Assembly: GCF_016026235.1 (NCBI RefSeq)
Contig: NZ_CP065613.1
DNA: 64,000 nucleotides
Strand: one strand, 5' to 3'
DNA from: Escherichia coli
Lineage (GTDB): Bacteria > Pseudomonadota > Gammaproteobacteria > Enterobacterales > Enterobacteriaceae
Both the position numbers and the translations under genes were made by a program. The notes beneath the pieces were generated by a model. It was not told the origin of the DNA. It made no database searches and saw only the letters and a list, made by a program, of their open reading frames with translations. Each line of letters begins with the position of its first letter. Position 1 is the stretch's first letter. Shown one piece after another: positions 4 to 38,503 of this stretch.

Positions 4-879
4 GTGATTTTCTTTGGCTTTGGCAATGGCGGGCAGTCGATTGGTTTTAGCAATCTCACAGAGCATGGCGGTTTCTTTGCGGGTGGCTGGAAAGGGTTCC
101 TGACCGCGCTGTGTATTGTGGTGGCGTCCTACCAGGGCGTGGAGCTGATTGGCATTACTGCCGGTGAAGCGAAGAATCCGCAGGTGACGCTGCGCAGTGC
201 CGTAGGCAAAGTGCTGTGGCGGATCCTGATTTTCTACGTAGGCGCGATTTTCGTTATCGTCACCATCTTCCCGTGGAATGAAATTGGCAGCAACGGCAGC
301 CCGTTCGTACTGACTTTTGCCAAAATCGGTATTACCGCAGCGGCGGGCATTATCAACTTTGTGGTGCTGACGGCTGCGCTCTCTGGCTGTAACAGCGGCA
401 TGTACAGTTGCGGACGTATGCTCTACGCACTGGCGAAAAACCGTCAGTTACCGGCGGCGATGGCGAAAGTTTCCCGTCACGGCGTACCAGTTGCGGGTGT
501 GGCAGTATCTATTGCTATTCTGCTAATTGGCTCATGCCTGAACTACATCATTCCCAATCCGCAGCGTGTGTTTGTCTACGTCTACAGTGCCAGCGTGCTT
601 CCGGGGATGGTGCCATGGTTTGTGATATTGATAAGCCAGCTGCGTTTTCGGCGTGCACATAAAGCGGCGATTGCCAGCCATCCGTTCCGCTCAATCCTGT
701 TCCCGTGGGCCAACTACGTAACAATGGCATTCCTGATTTGCGTTTTGATCGGCATGTACTTTAATGAAGATACGCGTATGTCGCTGTTTGTTGGCATCAT
801 CTTTATGCTGGCGGTGACGGCGATTTATAAAGTTTTTGGCCTTAATCGCCACGGGAAAGCGCATAAACTGGAGGAATAA
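4..879 (+). CDS. yifK: APC-family amino acid permease, 3' portion (gene starts upstream of window)
   Basis: ORF runs off the 5' edge; 291 aa polytopic membrane product typical of amino-acid permeases; sits immediately upstream of the argX-hisR-leuT-proM tRNA cluster as yifK does in E. coli. Confidence 0.85.
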
Positions 880-931
880 GCAGCAAAACGCACAAACCGT
901 AACCAAACGCGCAATTTATTTAAAAAGGGAC

Positions 932-960
932 TAGACAGAGGGGTGGGAAGTCCGTATTAT
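932..960 (+). promoter_or_regulatory. Candidate sigma70 promoter of the tRNA operon (TAGACA-17 bp-TATTAT)
   Basis: -35-like TAGACA at 932-937 and -10-like TATTAT at 955-960 with 17 bp spacing, about 20 bp upstream of tRNA-Arg. Confidence 0.4.
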
Positions 961-981
961 CCACCCCCGCAACGGCGCTAA

Positions 982-1058
<77 letters not shown>

Positions 1059-1115
1059 TTTAGTCCCGGCGCTTGAGCTGCGGTGGTAGTAATACCGCGT
1101 AACAAGATTTGTAGT

Positions 1116-1192
1116 GGTGGCTATAGCTCAGTTGGTAGAGCCCTGGATTGTGATTCCAGTTGTCGTGGGTTCGAATCCCATTAGCCACCCCA
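1116..1192 (+). tRNA. hisR: tRNA-His (anticodon GUG)
   Basis: GGUGGCUAUAGCUCAGUUGGUAGAGC...GGUUCGAAUCC...CCACCCCA with the extra 5' G typical of tRNA-His; anticodon loop UUGUGAU. Confidence 0.93.
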
Positions 1193-1212
1193 TTATTAGA
1201 AGTTGTGACAAT

Positions 1213-1299
1213 GCGAAGGTGGCGGAATTGGTAGACGCGCTAGCTTCAGGTGTTAGTGTCCTTACGGACGTGGGGGTTCAAGTCCCCCCCCTCGCACCA
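1213..1299 (+). tRNA. leuT: tRNA-Leu (anticodon CAG), long variable arm
   Basis: 87 nt class II tRNA GCGAAGGUGGCGGAAUUGGUAGACGCG...; anticodon loop CUUCAGGUG; GGUUCAAGUCC T-arm. Confidence 0.92.
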
Positions 1300-1341
1300 C
1301 GACTTTAAAGAATTGAACTAAAAATTCAAAAAGCAGTATTT

Positions 1342-1418
1342 CGGCGAGTAGCGCAGCTTGGTAGCGCAACTGGTTTGGGACCAGTGGGTCGGAGGTTCGA
1401 ATCCTCTCTCGCCGACCA
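1342..1418 (+). tRNA. proM: tRNA-Pro (anticodon UGG)
   Basis: CGGCGAGUAGCGCAGCUUGGUAGCGCA...UUUGGGA anticodon loop...GGUUCGAAUCC...GCCGACCA. Confidence 0.92.
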
Positions 1419-1424
1419 ATTTTG

Positions 1425-1452
1425 AACCCCGCTTCGGCGGGGTTTTTTGTTT
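1425..1452 (+). terminator. Rho-independent terminator of the tRNA operon
   Basis: GC-rich hairpin AACCCCGC-TTCG-GCGGGGTT followed by TTTTGTTTTC. Confidence 0.8.
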
Positions 1453-1564
1453 TCTGTGCATTTCGTCACCCTCCCTTCGCAATAAACGCCCGTAATAACT
1501 CATTGCCCCACGGTATGATTTCGCCCTTAACGTATTGAAGGATGACTTCAGGCAAGGAGTGACC

Positions 1565-2800
1565 ATGCTGCAACAGGTTCCAACGCGTGCTTTTCATGTG
1601 ATGGCGAAACCGAGTGGTTCCGATTGTAATCTGAACTGTGACTACTGTTTTTATCTCGAAAAACAATCCCTTTACCGCGAAAAGCCAGTCACGCATATGG
1701 ACGATGACACGCTGGAAGCGTATGTCCGTCACTATATCGCTGCCAGCGAACCGCAAAACGAAGTGGCTTTTACCTGGCAGGGCGGCGAACCAACGTTACT
1801 CGGGCTGGATTTTTACCGCCGTGCCGTAAAGTTACAGGCGAAATACGGTGCTGGCAGGAAGATAAGTAACAGCTTCCAGACTAACGGCGTGCTGCTCGAT
1901 GATAAATGGTGTGCATTTCTGGCAGAAAATCATTTTCTTGTTGGGTTATCGCTGGACGGTCCGGCTGAGATCCACAATCAATATCGCGTGACCAAAGGTG
2001 GCAGACCAACGCATAAGCTGGTGATGCGTGCCCTGACGCTGCTGCAAAAACATCATGTCGACTATAACGTGCTGGTCTGCGTCAACCGCACCAGCGCGCA
2101 GCAACCGTTGCAGGTTTATGATTTTTTGTGCGATGCGGGAGTCGAATTCATCCAGTTTATTCCGGTGGTCGAGCGCCTGGCTGATGAAACAGCTGCCAGC
2201 GATGGACTGAAACTACATGCGCCTGGTGATATTCAGGGGGAACTGACGGAATGGTCGGTGCGCCCCGATGAATTTGGTGAATTTCTGGTGGCGATATTCG
2301 ACCACTGGATCAAACGCGACGTCGGCAAGATTTTCGTGATGAATATCGAATGGGCGTTTGCCAATTTTGTCGGTGCGCCGGGTGCGGTTTGCCATCATCA
2401 GCCAACCTGTGGGCGCTCGGTGATTGTTGAGCACAACGGCGACGTTTACGCCTGCGATCACTATGTTTATCCGCAATATCGGCTGGGGAATATGCATCAG
2501 CAAACAATTGCAGAAATGATCGATTCCCCGCAACAGCAGGTGTTTGGTGAAGATAAATTTAAGCAATTACCGGCGCAGTGTCGCAGTTGTAACGTGTTAA
2601 AAGCGTGCTGGGGAGGCTGCCCGAAACACCGCTTCATGCTCGATGCCAGCGGCAAACCGGGGCTGAATTATTTGTGTGCCGGGTATCAGCGTTATTTCCG
2701 CCATCTACCGCCATATCTTAAAGCAATGGCTGATTTGCTGGCGCACGGTCGCCCGGCCAGTGACATTATGCAGGCACATTTGCTGGTGGTGAATAAGTAA
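1565..2800 (+). CDS. aslB: Anaerobic sulfatase-maturating enzyme, radical SAM (411 aa from ATG 1565; ORF track extends to 1535)
   Basis: N-terminal CxxxCxxC radical-SAM motif (CNLNCDYC) and C-terminal Cys-rich auxiliary cluster region; length and position after the tRNA operon match aslB. Confidence 0.9.
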   Translation: MLQQVPTRAFHVMAKPSGSDCNLNCDYCFYLEKQSLYREKPVTHMDDDTLEAYVRHYIAASEPQNEVAFTWQGGEPTLLGLDFYRRAVKLQAKYGAGRKISNSFQTNGVLLDDKWCAFLAENHFLVGLSLDGPAEIHNQYRVTKGGRPTHKLVMRALTLLQKHHVDYNVLVCVNRTSAQQPLQVYDFLCDAGVEFIQFIPVVERLADETAASDGLKLHAPGDIQGELTEWSVRPDEFGEFLVAIFDHWIKRDVGKIFVMNIEWAFANFVGAPGAVCHHQPTCGRSVIVEHNGDVYACDHYVYPQYRLGNMHQQTIAEMIDSPQQQVFGEDKFKQLPAQCRSCNVLKACWGGCPKHRFMLDASGKPGLNYLCAGYQRYFRHLPPYLKAMADLLAHGRPASDIMQAHLLVVNK

Positions 2801-2835
2801 AAAAGCGGCCATTTTGTGGCCGCCTGCGGTTGATT

Positions 2836-2870
<35 letters not shown>

Positions 2871-2883
2871 TGATCGTGCAAAT

Positions 2884-3045
2884 TCAATAAATTGCAGCGT
2901 TCTGTGGATACTGGTTTGGGTGATCGTATCCGGCAAAGCCTTTGCGTGCGGTGGCAGTTGACGGGGTATCTGCTGCGCTGGCCATGAGAGGAAGAGCGGC
3001 GGCGACAGCAACAACAAGAAGTTTGGGTGAAAACGAAAATTCCAT
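2884..3045 (-). pseudogene. aslA: 5' stub of a periplasmic protein gene, probably arylsulfatase aslA; rest of gene absent
   Basis: Minus-strand ATG at 3045 encodes [28 protein letters not shown]..., a classic Sec signal peptide with AXA site, then stops after 53 codons; this is where aslA is expected (convergent with aslB, before glmZ/hemY) but only ~160 bp remain. Confidence 0.45.
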
Positions 3046-3469
3046 GCAAAATGCTCCGGTTTCATGTCATCAAAATGATGACGTAATTAAGCATTGATAA
3101 TTGAGATCCCTCTCCCTGACAGGATGATTACATAAATAATAGTGACAAAAATAAATTATTTATTTATCCAGAAAATGAATTGGAAAATCAGGAGAGCGTT
3201 TTCAATCCTACCTCTGGCGCAGTTGATATGTAAGGCAGGTTTATTATATCGCGTTGATTATTGATGCTTTTTTTAGTTTTAACGGCAATTAATATATGTG
3301 TTATTAATTGAATGAATTTTATCATTCATAATAAGTATGTGTAGGATCAAGCTCAGGTTAAATATTCACTCAGGAAGTTATTACTCAGGAAGCAAAGAGG
3401 ATTACAGAATTATCTCATAACAAGTGTTAAGGGATGTTATTTCCCGATTCTCTGTGGCATAATAAACGG

Positions 3470-3676
3470 GTAGATGCTCATTCCATCTCTTATGTTCGCC
3501 TTAGTGCCTCATAAACTCCGGAATGACGCAGAGCCGTTTACGGTGCTTATCGTCCACTGACAGATGTCGCTTATGCCTCATCAGACACCATGGACACAAC
3601 GTTGAGTGAAGCACCCACTTGTTGTCATACAGACCTGTTTTAACGCCTGCTCCGTAATAAGAGCAGGCGTTTTTTT
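3470..3676 (+). ncRNA. glmZ: GlmZ (SraJ/RyiA) small regulatory RNA
   Basis: Sequence GTAGATGCTCATTCCATCTCTTATGTTCGCC...ends in hairpin AACGCCTGCTC-CGTAATAA-GAGCAGGCGTT plus T7 tract; matches my recollection of GlmZ in the aslA-hemY intergenic region; -10-like CATAAT at 3458-3463. Exact 5' end uncertain. Confidence 0.65.
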
Positions 3677-33367: not shown

Positions 33368-35629
33368 ATGACAATATTGAATCACACCCTCGGTTTCCCT
33401 CGCGTTGGCCTGCGTCGCGAGCTGAAAAAAGCGCAAGAGAGTTATTGGGCAGGGAACTCCACGCGTGAAGAACTGCTGGCGGTAGGGCGTGAATTGCGTG
33501 CTCGTCACTGGGATCAACAAAAGCAAGCGGGTATCGACCTGCTGCCGGTGGGCGATTTTGCCTGGTACGATCATGTACTGACCACCAGTTTGCTGCTGGG
33601 TAATGTTCCGCCACGTCATCAGAACAAAGACGGTTCGGTAGATATCGACACCCTGTTCCGTATTGGTCGTGGACGTGCGCCGACTGGCGAACCTGCGGCG
33701 GCAGCGGAAATGACCAAATGGTTTAACACCAACTATCACTACATGGTGCCGGAGTTCGTTAAAGGCCAACAGTTCAAACTGACCTGGACGCAGCTGCTGG
33801 AGGAAGTGGACGAGGCGCTGGTGCTGGGCCACAACGTTAAGCCTGTGCTGCTGGGGCCGGTTACTTACCTGTGGCTGGGGAAAGTGAAAGGTGAACAGTT
33901 TGACCGCCTTAGCCTGCTGAACGACATTCTGCCGGTTTATCAGCAAGTGCTGGCAGAACTGGCGAAACGCGGCATCGAGTGGGTACAGATTGATGAACCC
34001 GCGCTGGTACTGGAACTACCACAGGCGTGGCTGGACGCATACAAACCCGCTTACGACGCGCTCCAGGGACAGGTGAAACTGCTGCTGACCACCTATTTTG
34101 AAGGCGTAACGCCAAATCTCGACACGATTACTGCGCTGCCTGTTCAGGGTCTGCATGTTGACCTCGTACATGGTAAAGATGACGTTGCTGAACTGCACAA
34201 GCGCCTGCCTTCTGACTGGTTGCTGTCTGCGGGTCTGATCAATGGTCGTAACGTCTGGCGCGCCGATCTTACCGAGAAATATGCGCAAATTAAGGACATT
34301 GTCGGCAAACGTGATTTATGGGTGGCATCTTCCTGCTCGTTGCTGCACAGCCCCATCGACCTGAGCGTGGAAACGCGTCTTGATGCAGAAGTGAAAAGCT
34401 GGTTTGCCTTCGCCCTGCAAAAATGTCATGAACTGGCACTGCTGCGAGATGCGCTGAACAGTGGTGATACGGCAGCTCTGGCAGAGTGGAGCGCTCCAAT
34501 TCAGGCGCGTCGTCACTCTACTCGTGTACATAACCCGGCAGTAGAAAAGCGTCTGGCGGCGATCACCGCCCAGGACAGCCAGCGTGCGAATGTCTATGAA
34601 GTGCGTGCCGAAGCCCAGCGTGCGCGTTTTAAACTGCCAGCGTGGCCGACCACCACGATTGGTTCCTTCCCGCAAACCACGGAAATTCGTACCCTGCGTC
34701 TGGATTTCAAAAAGGGTAATCTCGACGCCAACAACTACCGCACGGGCATTGCGGAACATATCAAGCAGGCCATTGTTGAACAGGAACGTTTGGGACTGGA
34801 TGTGCTGGTACATGGCGAGGCCGAGCGTAATGACATGGTGGAATACTTTGGCGAGCACCTCGACGGATTTGTCTTTACGCAAAACGGTTGGGTACAGAGC
34901 TACGGTTCCCGCTGCGTGAAGCCACCGATTGTCATTGGTGACATTAGCCGCCCGGCACCGATTACCGTGGAGTGGGCGAAGTATGCGCAATCTCTGACTG
35001 ATAAACCGGTGAAAGGGATGCTGACTGGCCCGGTGACCATTCTCTGCTGGTCGTTCCCGCGTGAAGATGTCAGCCGTGAAACCATCGCCAAACAAATTGC
35101 GCTGGCGCTGCGTGATGAAGTGGCGGACCTGGAAGCCGCAGGAATTGGCATCATCCAGATTGATGAACCGGCGCTGCGCGAAGGTTTACCGCTGCGTCGT
35201 AGCGACTGGGATGCATATCTCCAGTGGGGCGTGGAGGCCTTCCGTATCAACGCCGCCGTGGCGAAAGATGACACACAAATCCACACTCACATGTGTTATT
35301 GCGAGTTCAACGACATCATGGATTCGATTGCGGCACTGGATGCAGACGTCATCACCATCGAAACCTCGCGTTCCGACATGGAGTTGCTGGAGTCGTTTGA
35401 AGAGTTTGATTATCCGAATGAAATCGGTCCAGGCGTCTATGACATTCACTCGCCAAACGTACCGAGCGTGGAATGGATTGAAGCCTTGCTGAAGAAAGCG
35501 GCAAAACGCATTCCGGCAGAGCGCCTGTGGGTCAACCCGGACTGTGGCCTGAAAACGCGCGGCTGGCCAGAAACCCGCGCGGCACTGGCGAACATGGTGC
35601 AGGCGGCGCAGAATTTGCGTCGGGGATGA
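33368..35629 (+). CDS. metE: Cobalamin-independent methionine synthase
   Basis: 753 aa; starts [24 protein letters not shown]...; C-terminal zinc-binding His/Cys/Glu motifs. Confidence 0.96.
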
Positions 35630-35734
35630 TGAATATTAACGAGTCACTGTAAATTGCAGTACGATGAAAGAGGCAAAACTGCCTGATACCAGGCCTACAT
35701 AATTTATGCAATTTATTGAATTTTTGAGTTTTGT

Positions 35735-35775
35735 TGGCCGGACAAGGCGTTCACGCCGCATCCGGCATGAACAAC
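35735..35775. repeat. REP element
   Basis: GGCCGGACAAGGCGTTCACGCCGCATCCGGCATGAACAA downstream of metE. Confidence 0.65.
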
Positions 35776-35913
35776 GCGCACTTTGCCAATAATCTGATGG
35801 CTTCCATCACCGGAAGCCATTTTGCTATCTGCGCCCGTTCAGATACAGAAATAACCGAATCATTTTTACGCAAAATATAATCCTGAGCGATTTGTTCAGT
35901 AATCAACGCTACG

Positions 35914-36189
35914 TTATTTATTCTCACTTTTCACGAAATTGTATCCCTTTTCAGTAACGTGGTAGTGAGGCATAGACTTATGTCCGCTATCCTCAATAAT
36001 AACCAAACCCTCGTTAGCTAATTTGTTAACAATGTTAACAACATTACCGAATCCTGGAATTTGCCTTATGGATAGTGTGCGATCGAGATTCATCCAGTTC
36101 CAGTTTATATCTTTCTCAGCCATAACTTTCAGTACGTTAATTTCAGTTTCAGTTATCATAGTCAAGTGCATCCTGGTGGTATAAGTCAT
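35914..36189 (-). CDS. Small hypothetical protein, candidate immunity protein for the upstream Hcp-ET toxin (up to 91 aa; true start may be an internal Met)
   Basis: ORF immediately downstream of, and overlapping, the 3' end of the toxin-domain ORF; the usual toxin-immunity gene arrangement. No homology check possible here. Confidence 0.45.
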   Translation of the reverse strand: MTYTTRMHLTMITETEINVLKVMAEKDINWNWMNLDRTLSIRQIPGFGNVVNIVNKLANEGLVIIEDSGHKSMPHYHVTEKGYNFVKSENK

Positions 36190-37296
36190 TAAGTTCTCCC
36201 TTAAGTTTATAATCTTCTAGAGTAGCAGTATGCGTATGATTCCAGAGTGCATAGCCTGCGTCACCATCAGGTTGTCCTGTTTCCCAACCAAGATTACAGT
36301 AACGCTGATATTCCCGACACTCATGAGTATAGAAGTTAAGATCTACTTGTTCTGGGGGGATTTTTCCTTTCTCAATGTCTTTCAGTCTATTGATCATCAC
36401 TTCATTTACAGGGTCATGACCAAATCTGGCTATGTGTTTTTCAACAATAGCGATACCTTCCCTGTTGATTGTTACGCCATCTGTCGTCAGATTTTCTATT
36501 GGACCACCGGCAAGGTCGGGATTAAATGGTCTTCCTGATACTGCTCCTCTGGCTCCGAAATGCTCAAGTGATTCCAAATCAGGGAGTCTCATTCTCCCCA
36601 GAACTGCTCCAGCAACTATTGAAGCACCAGCGATGAGTAACCCTTTGTTATCCATAAATTGATCGTAACCAGCAGGTGCATCTCCCCCCAACTTGTCTGC
36701 TGTTTCCCTGAATCCTTCGATATTCCCATTGTATATGCCGCCAGCAGCAAGCAGTCTGCCAACCGCTTTACTATTAAGTGTTTTGAACCATTACCAGCTT
36801 TAGTTTTTGGCCGTGGTATAAACAGACGGTTGTAGTTATCGGGAAATGCCAAATAACTAAATTCAGTATTAGCAATCAGATGCCTGGAGAGTATATATTC
36901 ATAACTGACAGTGATGGCTTCTGTATCCAGATTGTTCTCAGTAAACAGGTGATTGATTGCTGATAAGAGCGCGCCGCGGAGTTGAATGTTGTAATATTTC
37001 TCCCATCGACCAAACCTATTGATCCGATAGAAGTCAAACTCCATGAACAACTGCTCGTTATTGTTAATAGCGTTAATAAGTAACGGGGAGCTTTTGTCAA
37101 TCAATTTACAGAAACTAAGGCCATGCAATTATGACCCTTTGCCTGTATTCGTAATACTATTAGAGAGCGAGAACGCGAAGATTTCATCATCATGGCCAAT
37201 CTGCCAGCGATTACCTATTGATGCGCTCGTTCCACAACGAGAGGAAATACATCCTTGTTGTTCTCCGGTTATGGTCAGGTAAATAATATCACTCAT
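36149..37296 (-). pseudogene. hcp: T6SS Hcp with C-terminal extended toxin domain (Hcp-ET type), broken by an in-frame TAA and a frameshift
   Basis: Minus-strand ATG at 37296 encodes MSDIIYLTITGEQQGCISSRCGTSASIGNRWQIGHDDEIFAFSLSNSITNTGKGS*, an Hcp N-terminal signature; same frame continues after the TAA (37129-37131) with ...KLIDKSSPLLINAINNNEQLFMEFDFYRINRFGRWEKYY... (Hcp core); a frame change near 36745 joins it to a ~180 aa C-terminal domain. Confidence 0.7.
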
Positions 37297-37690
37297 CCTT
37301 GAAAAACCTTTTGTTAATTCTTTTGTGAAAGAGAAATAGTATTGTTGTTTTTTTTTACCTTTATTTACGCCTAAAAGTGATGAACTAAAATGTGAAAAAC
37401 AAAATGTTTCACTTTAATATCTTTTTATCAGGAAGGTCTGAGATGATTTATAATTAATGTGAATGTGTTGATAATAATTAATGTTTGTTTGTGAATGGGA
37501 GTTGATGGTAAATCTCTAAGGTGTCTTCCATTGAAGAGACTCATTTATGACTATGACTTGCCGACTTTTTTAAGGTCAAATAGCGGAGTCGTAATCTCCA
37601 ATCAATTCATACTGATTATTTTTTGGGGGACAGAGATGGCAGCAAAACGCACTCGTTCACTCACCATCTCAAATATAGACTAAGAGGAAA

Positions 37691-38503
37691 CTAACTCCGC
37701 TTCCCACCATACTGCTTAAACCATTCCAGCATACGCTGCCAGCCATCTTTCGCAGATTCGGCATGATAGCTCGGGCGATAATCAGCGTTGAATGCATGCC
37801 CGGCATCCGGGTACACGATAATCTCTGCTTTCGCATTAGCAGCCCGCAGCGCCTGGCGCATGGTTTCAACGCTCTCCTGCGGAATACTGTTATCCAGACC
37901 GCCATATAAGCCGAGAACCGGCGCGTTAAGATCGGTTGCGATATCAACAGGTTGTTTCGGTGAATTCAACGACTTGTCGCCCGTCAGTTTGCCGTACCAC
38001 GCCACTGCGGCTTTTAGCTGTGGATTATGCGCGGCATACAGCCAGGTGATACGTCCACCCCAGCAGAATCCGGTGATCATTAAACGATGAACATCGCCGC
38101 CGTTGCGGGAAGCCCAACTGGCGACATGATCGAGATCGGCCAGCACCTGCGAGTCAGGCACTTTTGCTACCAGACCGCTAAGCAACGTGGGGATATCGGC
38201 AAAATCATTCGGATCGCCTTCGCGGAAGTAAAGTTCAGGTGCGATAGCCAGATACCCCTCCAGCGCCAGACGGCGACAAATGTCGCGGATATGTTCATGC
38301 ACGCCAAAAATTTCCTGCACTACAATGACCACTGGCAGTGGGCCATCGCTTTGCTTTGGTCTGGCATGGTAAGCAGGCATGTTATCCCCTTGTGAAGGGA
38401 TAGAGGTGAAGCCCGCCACAATCGCGTCGTCCGGGGTCTGAACGATGGTCGAAGCGAGAGGCGATGCAGCAGGTGCAAATCCAGATTGTTGTGTTGTTGC
38501 CAT
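37691..38503 (-). CDS. ysgA: Dienelactone hydrolase-family protein (271 aa from ATG 38503; ORF track extends to 38569)
   Basis: Alpha/beta hydrolase with GFCWGG nucleophile motif; good SD (GGAGAA) before the 38503 start. Confidence 0.88.
   Translation of the reverse strand: MATTQQSGFAPAASPLASTIVQTPDDAIVAGFTSIPSQGDNMPAYHARPKQSDGPLPVVIVVQEIFGVHEHIRDICRRLALEGYLAIAPELYFREGDPNDFADIPTLLSGLVAKVPDSQVLADLDHVASWASRNGGDVHRLMITGFCWGGRITWLYAAHNPQLKAAVAWYGKLTGDKSLNSPKQPVDIATDLNAPVLGLYGGLDNSIPQESVETMRQALRAANAKAEIIVYPDAGHAFNADYRPSYHAESAKDGWQRMLEWFKQYGGKRS

Follow-up and report, generated by a model that had tools for sequence, protein, structure and literature searches.

A decayed Hcp-toxin fusion gene and its intact candidate immunity neighbour at the metE-ysgA locus of Escherichia coli

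Hcp-ET effectors, as reportedly described by Ma et al. in 2017, are Hcp proteins that carry a C-terminal extension toxin. In T6SS, CDI and Rhs systems it is well documented that immunity genes can outlast their toxins. Two later summaries of the Hcp-ET class (PMC6730261, PMC6099711) list five extension domains: HNH-DNase, DUF2235/Tle1, pyocin S3, colicin DNase and papain-like peptidase. Hcp-ET1 is reported from strain 55989 (O104:H4). The hcp3 gene of the porcine ExPEC strain PCN033 is a 1149-bp ORF whose first half alone is Hcp-like; its deletion affected cell invasion and colonisation and did not reduce the killing of K-12 (W3110) (Peng et al. 2016, PMC4882540). Immunity genes that persist without a working cognate toxin form orphan T6SS immunity genes or defence islets (bioRxiv 10.1101/471110). 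An immunity islet has been described in S. Typhi (PMC7400221) and orphan immunity genes in Pantoea (PMC9796082).

The locus reported here lies in a 64,000-nt stretch of an E. coli chromosome (contig NZ_CP065613.1), called the window below, in which the gene order is metR, metE, islet, ysgA, udp and rmuC. BLAST of the metE-ysgA region against E. coli 55989 shows homology that ends at 35625 and restarts at 37700; in 55989 the site is empty, with 38 bp separating metE from ysgA. The 2.07 kb between these positions have a GC content of 35-47%, compared with 54-55% in the flanks. The islet was therefore acquired, as both the empty site in 55989 and its lower GC content indicate. Its minus strand carries two genes, an Hcp-toxin fusion and an overlapping 81-codon ORF (Table 1). 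The nearest relative of the window is FDAARGOS_943, which is 100% identical to it over 20 kb except for one IS1 confined to FDAARGOS_943. The islet is carried by 848 of 5426 complete E. coli genomes.

Table 1. Features of the metE-ysgA islet, in window coordinates.
Feature	Position	Strand	Basis
Horizontally acquired islet, between the 3' end of metE and the 3' end of ysgA	35626..37699		BLAST against 55989; GC content
Candidate immunity gene, intact, 81 codons (WP_000627421.1)	35914..36159	-	Identical to the 88-3493 copy
Pseudogene of an orphan Hcp-toxin fusion (Hcp-ET type; orthologue of PCN033 hcp3)	36149..37296	-	Alignment with intact orthologues
Putative C-terminal toxin domain (aa 241-382 plus stop), uninterrupted, uncoupled from the Hcp start	36149..36577	-	ORF, alignment, model
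Linker (aa 172-240), Gly/Ala-rich with hydrophobic stretch GLLIAGASIVAGAVLG	36578..36785	-	Alignment with Hcp-less proteins
1-nt deletion at codon 170/171, Hcp/extension junction (TT left of TTT)	36786..36787	-	Alignment with orthologues
Hcp/TssD tube-protein domain (aa 1-147), interrupted by the stop	36856..37296	-	Pfam, TIGR03344 and PDB matches
TAA nonsense codon in place of CAA (Gln56), inside the Hcp domain	37129..37131	-	Alignment with orthologues
Weak sigma-70-like match upstream of the Hcp-ET start, TTGACC-18-CATAGT	37550..37579	-	Promoter scan

The window copy is a dead member of the Hcp-ET kind. Several features are shared with that class. The intact orthologue has an N-terminal Hcp/TssD domain by profile and PDB matches, the gene lies outside a T6SS cluster, and the sequences point to a putative C-terminal toxin extension, also present on other delivery proteins, with a small candidate immunity gene directly downstream. 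Two features set it apart: the window copy is a pseudogene, and by Pfam and NCBIfam its extension matches none of the five domains listed for the class. The gene is also distinct from Hcp-ET1, whose reported host 55989 has an empty metE-ysgA site. The gene shares its metE-ysgA locus, its 1149-bp ORF length and 98.3% DNA identity with PCN033 hcp3, which is intact, unlike the window copy with its Gln56 stop and frameshift. As in the polymorphic toxins Rhs, CdiA and PAAR, the toxin domain occurs on Hcp, PAAR and other N-termini with a matching immunity gene downstream, and the old immunity gene stays in the locus when the toxin tip is exchanged; the carrier here, unlike in those modules, is Hcp.

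Intact orthologues of the fusion gene are 1149 nt long, encode 382 aa and are annotated tssD, close to the length of about 380 aa that a reading of the window from its sequence alone had estimated. In an intact orthologue the Hcp domain is matched by PF05638 (E 6.8e-14, aa 6-135) and TIGR03344 (E 1.6e-36, aa 1-147), and the Hcp part matches the PDB Hcp chains 6a2v and 3he1. The C-terminal extension spans aa ~150-382. Its linker, which in the window is out of frame relative to the start codon, contains a segment, KTLNSKAVGRLLAAGG...GLLIAGAS..., that alignment also places in 348-aa proteins of Pantoea, Klebsiella and Cronobacter. Linker and toxin domain are thus conserved together in proteins without an Hcp domain. 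The leftover 3' ORF is annotated in RefSeq as a separate CDS, 'colicin'.

The two lesions were located by comparison with two intact reference orthologues, those of 88-3493 (99.5% identity) and PCN033. Translation of the minus strand from 37296 (region 37296-36140) gives MSDIIYL...NTGKGS, a stop, and then LHGLSFCKLIDK. The stop, Gln56stop, results from a single C>T change (C166T) that converts CAA to TAA. The second lesion is the loss of one T, GGTTTC in the orthologues having become GGTTC in the window, and the continuation, ...NSKAVGRLLAAGGIYNGNIEG...DYDN followed by a stop, is read in another frame. No single ORF joins the Hcp domain to the toxin in the window, given Gln56stop and the 1-nt deletion. 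Relative to 88-3493 the window shows exactly seven differences in 1384 positions. Four are silent (L7L and three flanking or downstream of the lesions); the others are the missense change E36D, C166T and the T lost from GGTTTC. The identical sequence of FDAARGOS_943 carries the RefSeq annotation tssD, 'frameshifted; internal stop'. The full Hcp-toxin fusion protein can no longer be made in the window lineage, because Gln56stop and then the T deletion intervene. The sequence-only reading had proposed this inactivation by an in-frame TAA and one frameshift, and the in-frame, 99.5%-identical orthologues bear it out. Its position for the TAA was exact, and the codon replaced is indeed a sense codon, CAA. 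Its frameshift is a real 1-nt indel, but the actual site, at 36787-36786, lies ~45 nt upstream of the one it gave, 36740-36750. Both reading frames are open from 36792 to 36616, so the site of the frameshift is not locatable from the window sequence alone.

Both lesions recur in other genomes. They were counted by megablast with a 35-nt query centred on each lesion; the search requires an exact 28-mer, so a genome can match only if it shares the lesion. The same TAA allele is present in 15 of the 5426 complete E. coli genomes: nine O121 genomes (O121:H19 lineage), NCTC9064, an O103 strain, a horse isolate, FDAARGOS_943, EC2641 and VREC0864. The same T deletion is present in 6/5426, and the two occur together in the last three genomes named. 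Judged by these comparisons, both lesions are true mutations.

The distribution of the lesions also gives their order. All TAA carriers examined have the haplotype A108T-C166T(stop)-A282G, and the stop, shared by 15 genomes, therefore arose once and first. Second hits differ between groups. The window group acquired the T deletion, whereas E133stop is found in the O121:H19 group, NCTC9064 and the O103 strain ML775. The horse isolate has lost G609, 2014C-3655 has lost C939, and EC2641 has an IS903B insertion. Differing second hits are the usual signature of drift after a first knockout. The T deletion is also found in three genomes that lack the stop, each of which has a 22-bp deletion; outside the stop lineage it reflects either recurrence or transfer by recombination within the gene. 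Taken together, the locus is very probably a genuine orphan Hcp-ET pseudogene, decayed stepwise, beside an intact cognate immunity gene.

The putative toxin domain of ~140 aa recurs in several settings. It is fused to PAAR (P0082), is part of 348-aa proteins in Pantoea, Klebsiella, Cronobacter and Lonsdalea that carry the whole module of Gly/Ala-rich segment, hydrophobic segment and toxin domain, and stands alone in proteins of ~136-140 aa in Microcoleus and Pseudomonas. In the proteins without Hcp, the part shared with the fusion begins at about residue 172 with the Gly/Ala-rich segment, followed by the hydrophobic segment and the ~140-aa domain. Nearly invariant positions, in the numbering of the 142-aa domain query, include SGRxF, H48, R51, YTHExRExxRY and WNxxHTATLEDY. 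In the intact protein, where 240 is added to the query position, conserved residues include H288, H325, E326, R328 and H356. The AlphaFold2 model of the domain is all-alpha with a pLDDT of 92.5. No Pfam or NCBIfam family matched the domain, and no structural neighbour of the model was found in the PDB; the predicted fold is thus a confident one that has neither a solved relative nor a family assignment. A DNase of the HNH or colicin type was considered and rejected, as no such domain was matched in Pfam/NCBIfam and the all-alpha model has no beta-beta-alpha metal finger. Identity with Hcp-ET1 was rejected on the same domain and fold grounds and by the empty metE-ysgA site of 55989. The RefSeq names 'colicin' and 'HNH endonuclease' for fragments of this gene are unsupported by the domain searches and by the predicted fold.

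The ATG of the small gene overlaps the 3' end of the toxin ORF by 11 nt. As the sequence-only reading had stated, the gene is intact: its 81-codon ORF is uninterrupted, and its protein does not differ from the WP_000627421.1 of strains whose toxin gene is unbroken. Pfam and NCBIfam searches with the 81-aa protein gave sub-threshold winged-helix matches only. In three other genera a homologue of the small gene comes directly after the toxin domain: in Pantoea it has 90 aa and 53% identity, in Pseudomonas indica 80 aa (BLASTP E 8e-14), and in Microcoleus it matches with E 1e-6. The pairing is independent of what precedes the toxin domain, and it spans phyla. This conserved pairing in Pantoea, Pseudomonas and Microcoleus backs the label given to the small gene before these comparisons, and it suggests that the 81-aa protein acts as the immunity protein. 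The 99.4% identity reported for ETI1 would be impossible for a protein of 81 aa, a further argument against identity with Hcp-ET1.

The match listed in Table 1 is the sole sigma-70-like sequence upstream of the Hcp-ET start on the coding strand, and a scan of that strand found none between the Hcp-ET start and the immunity gene. In the promoter and terminator scan of the region, promoter-like sites were not above the background of shuffled sequence. Expression of the immunity gene may depend on an upstream promoter, and the premature stop could cause polarity.

What is known of the Hcp-ET class suggests how the intact system might work. The intact gene, as in 88-3493 and PCN033 (hcp3), would yield the 382-aa protein, whose N-terminal Hcp domain would become part of the T6SS tube. 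The linker and the ~140-aa toxin domain, covalently attached, would travel with the tube into neighbouring cells, and the producer and its kin would be protected by the overlapping 81-aa protein, which would neutralise the toxin. In the window lineage a C>T change turned Gln56 into a stop, and the T deletion at codon 170/171 followed.

Decay of the toxin gene is not confined to this lineage. At least 12 independent inactivating lesions were found. G699 is lost in F8111-1SC3, N3 has Q331stop and has lost C939, the gene is interrupted by an IS3 insertion in HCP4S3_I4, and MFDS1022581 has an IS2 and a stop. An IS3-family transposase is present at the metE-ysgA locus in O145 strains too. In CFSAN061768 the toxin gene is wholly gone, with an IS1 adjoining, and the immunity gene remains. 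In a second allele of the islet the toxin tip is another one and has its own 85-aa immunity gene, followed by an orphan 81-aa gene of the window type; this allele was found in AR_0015, LF82 and SF-468. The variant toxin gene is intact in AR_0015 (377 aa) and carries W98stop in LF82 and SF-468. W98stop is present in 282 B2 genomes, Nissle 1917, LF82 and the type strain ATCC 11775 among them, and 560 genomes have a sense codon at this position. Nonsense mutations alone disarm more than a third of the carrier genomes. A tentative reading of this record, and one held with less than even confidence, is that the islet has repeatedly been converted in E. coli from an attack-and-defence module to a defence-only module.

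The islet has, at the window locus, an intact immunity ORF and no functional cognate toxin gene. Like described orphan immunity systems, the locus has an immunity-only state (CFSAN061768) and an extra orphan behind the variant pair. It differs from mobile arrays of acquired immunity genes in that the candidate protector is a single gene, which stayed behind as its own toxin decayed. Whether such retention reflects selection is the point on which a purely neutral account has to be weighed. By that account, which is the strongest of the alternatives though still rather improbable, the immunity ORF owes its integrity solely to its small size and to the short time since the inactivation. The gene is a target about one fifth the size of the toxin gene. 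With 7 differences in 1384 positions, 1.2-1.5 changes would be expected in its 246 nt and none was found (P ~0.2-0.3), so an intact ORF is expected by chance within the window lineage. The orphan copies, moreover, differ from the window copy at 10-11 of 81 residues (15 differences over 246 nt for the copy compared at the DNA level), which gives no sign of strong constraint.

Three observations from the wider population weigh against neutrality. CFSAN061768 retains the immunity gene after loss of the whole toxin gene, and the orphan immunity type is intact in all four loci that carry it, the toxin-less CFSAN061768 included. Variable sites among window-type alleles number 37 per 1138 nt in the toxin gene and 3 per 246 nt in the immunity gene, where ~8 were expected (Poisson P ~0.04). 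The 81-codon ORF is also intact in 20 of 20 readable loci, a sample chosen partly for toxin lesions. On the neutral side, if the at least 12 disruptive events fell uniformly over both genes the probability of none in the immunity gene would be ~0.1. These variable-site and zero-lesion statistics are suggestive, not conclusive. The better arguments for the worth of the shield, as the sequences suggest, are the immunity-only locus and the orphan copy behind the variant pair. The earlier proposal that immunity is retained against kin that still carry the toxin thus fits the population data, namely the immunity-only locus, the orphan copy and the count of zero lesions against at least 12. Within the window lineage, retention is not demonstrable because the alleles are only ~0.5% diverged. 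The immunity gene probably still protects against neighbours firing this toxin, and the support for selection on it lies at the population level.

The secretion apparatus bears on the cause of the decay. Inspection covered the T6SS cluster at aspV (tRNA-Asp) in three genomes, FDAARGOS_943, FWSEC0006 and 88-3493. The T6SS lies outside the window, and the state of the apparatus in the window strain is taken from FDAARGOS_943. There an IS21 interrupts the sheath gene tssC, and IS600 has cut short one vgrG. In FWSEC0006 (O121:H19, with the same Gln56 stop) tssK is annotated as frameshifted. This tssK frameshift could be an assembly error. In 88-3493, which has an intact toxin gene, tssA, B, C, E, F, G, H, J, K, L and M, hcp and vgrG are intact, and an accessory VasL-domain gene alone is frameshifted. 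The T6SS of PCN033, whose toxin gene is also intact, is experimentally functional (PMC4882540). The broken core genes in the genomes with the Gln56 stop point to erosion of a weapon that could not be fired. Decay of the toxin by loss of use, the weapon being no longer launchable, is most likely, a link that rests on three genomes; in short, the weapon was most likely eroded and the shield kept.

A second account, that the toxin gene was lost by positive selection as costly or dangerous to its carrier, seems unlikely. The at least 12 independent events and the nonsense codons in over a third of carriers could reflect such a cost. The immunity gene is, however, present in the lineage, so self-poisoning should be covered. 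The Gln56-stop genomes that were checked also have core T6SS genes broken, and by different lesions, as would be expected if an unused system were eroding as a whole and not if one toxin were singled out for removal. The sequence-only reading had raised decay of a self-endangering toxin as one explanation; it finds no support here, as a core T6SS gene is also broken in two genomes with the Gln56 stop and intact in 88-3493.

Function of the split gene is very improbable. It could take the form of a C-terminal ORF that serves as an addiction pair with the immunity gene, or of readthrough and frameshifting that restore the protein. The toxin-domain part is uninterrupted in the window (a leftover ORF of 150-180 aa), this ORF is annotated as a separate CDS in several genomes, and in Microcoleus and Pseudomonas the domain also occurs by itself. 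Yet no recognisable ribosome-binding site precedes the internal ATG or TTG, and no promoter-like site was found inside the gene on the coding strand. Other lineages break the toxin domain too (Q331stop, loss of C939, loss of the whole gene), and the orthologues read in frame through both sites with ordinary sense codons, with nothing to suggest programmed recoding.

The least probable alternative, also raised by the sequence-only reading, is that the strain encodes an intact Hcp-ET and that errors of sequencing or assembly account for both lesions; it is effectively refuted. One lesion is indeed a length change in a short T run, and other lesions in longer homopolymers (C6 at nt 939, G6 at nt 609) are possibly errors of their own assemblies. 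The stop, however, is a base substitution, and it is shared by 15 complete genomes that were assembled independently and come from different laboratories and serotypes. The T3>T2 deletion recurs in 6 genomes, three assemblies carry both lesions, one of these with an added IS903B, and the lesions form a nested pattern on a common haplotype.

Stepwise decay of the fusion gene beside a kept immunity gene is therefore the reading carried forward. The window pseudogene is in itself ordinary: it belongs to a known kind of effector and was already flagged by the NCBI pipeline in identical sequence. The only points worth following are that the toxin has been disarmed repeatedly at this locus and that its predicted fold has no family assignment. 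If the conversion to a defence-only module is real, selection would be maintaining the shield once the weapon, or its launcher, has gone. If the toxin assignment holds, the domain would represent an uncharacterised all-alpha family with a small winged-helix-like immunity protein, which ranges from Enterobacterales to cyanobacteria and for which the present names 'colicin' and 'HNH endonuclease' would be wrong. The locus offers a natural series of states (intact, nonsense, frameshift, IS insertion and immunity only) over hundreds of complete genomes. This series, which includes Nissle 1917 and LF82, could be used to measure whether immunity genes outlive their toxins under selection.

The toxin domain of the Hcp fusion has no family in Pfam or NCBIfam. 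Its AlphaFold2 model, of high confidence (pLDDT 92.5), is all-alpha and has no neighbour in the PDB. RefSeq labels fragments of the domain "colicin" or "HNH endonuclease", names that neither the family searches nor the all-alpha model supports. The domain occurs on several carriers. In Pantoea and Pseudomonas it is joined to different N-terminal domains, in Microcoleus it is a stand-alone protein, and it is also found fused to PAAR (P0082). A homolog of the 81-aa protein, the product of the candidate immunity gene, is encoded after the toxin domain in each of the Pantoea, Pseudomonas and Microcoleus loci.

Features of the islet and comparison loci (coordinates without an L-number are those of the window)
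Feature	Coordinates	Strand	Genome or counterpart
Toxin domain of Hcp fusion	36149-36577	minus	intact in L002:3765-4193
Toxin domain on other carriers	L018:2501-3816, L020:2501-3674, L022:2501-3393		Pantoea, Pseudomonas and Microcoleus
Single-T deletion	36786-36787		also L011, L012, L013
ysgA to Hcp-ET start	37691-37296		L001:1845-3045, with IS1A (FDAARGOS_943)
REP-like palindrome	35730-35775
58-aa ORF	35751-35927
Second islet allele	L028:1201-2908		AR_0015; also L025 (LF82), L027 (SF-468)
Immunity-only locus	L024:1493-2745		CFSAN061768
tssC::IS21 with vgrG::IS600	L016:46442-50000 and L017:1-1587		FDAARGOS_943
tssK frameshift	L030:28113-29445		FWSEC0006

The islet exists in other states. A second allele combines a variant toxin tip and its own 85-aa immunity gene with an orphan immunity gene of the window type. 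In 282 genomes, among them Nissle 1917, LF82 and ATCC 11775, the toxin gene of this allele is interrupted by W98stop. The CFSAN061768 locus has no toxin gene left; it contains a truncated immunity paralog and an 81-codon immunity gene that is intact, with an IS1 beside them. A GC-rich, REP-like palindrome (gccggatgcggcgtgaacgccttgtccggcc) lies at the edge of the islet that faces metE. Short ORFs at this edge (58 aa in the window, 40 aa in other genomes), which RefSeq calls "hypothetical", are probably not genes.

Across 20 kb the window and its nearest relative, FDAARGOS_943, are 100% identical except that FDAARGOS_943 carries an IS1A, absent from the window, between the start of Hcp-ET and ysgA. 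In two genomes with Gln56stop, FDAARGOS_943 and FWSEC0006, core genes of the T6SS cluster beside tRNA-Asp (aspV) are disrupted. Because the lesions differ, these T6SS losses are independent. The aspV region of FDAARGOS_943 contains many IS elements (IS1, IS600, IS21, ISEc60 and IS5).

The single-T deletion lies on two distinct 5' haplotypes: in one it accompanies Gln56stop, in the other the loss of 22 bp at nt 195-216. Such a distribution suggests intragenic recombination or recurrence of the single-T deletion.
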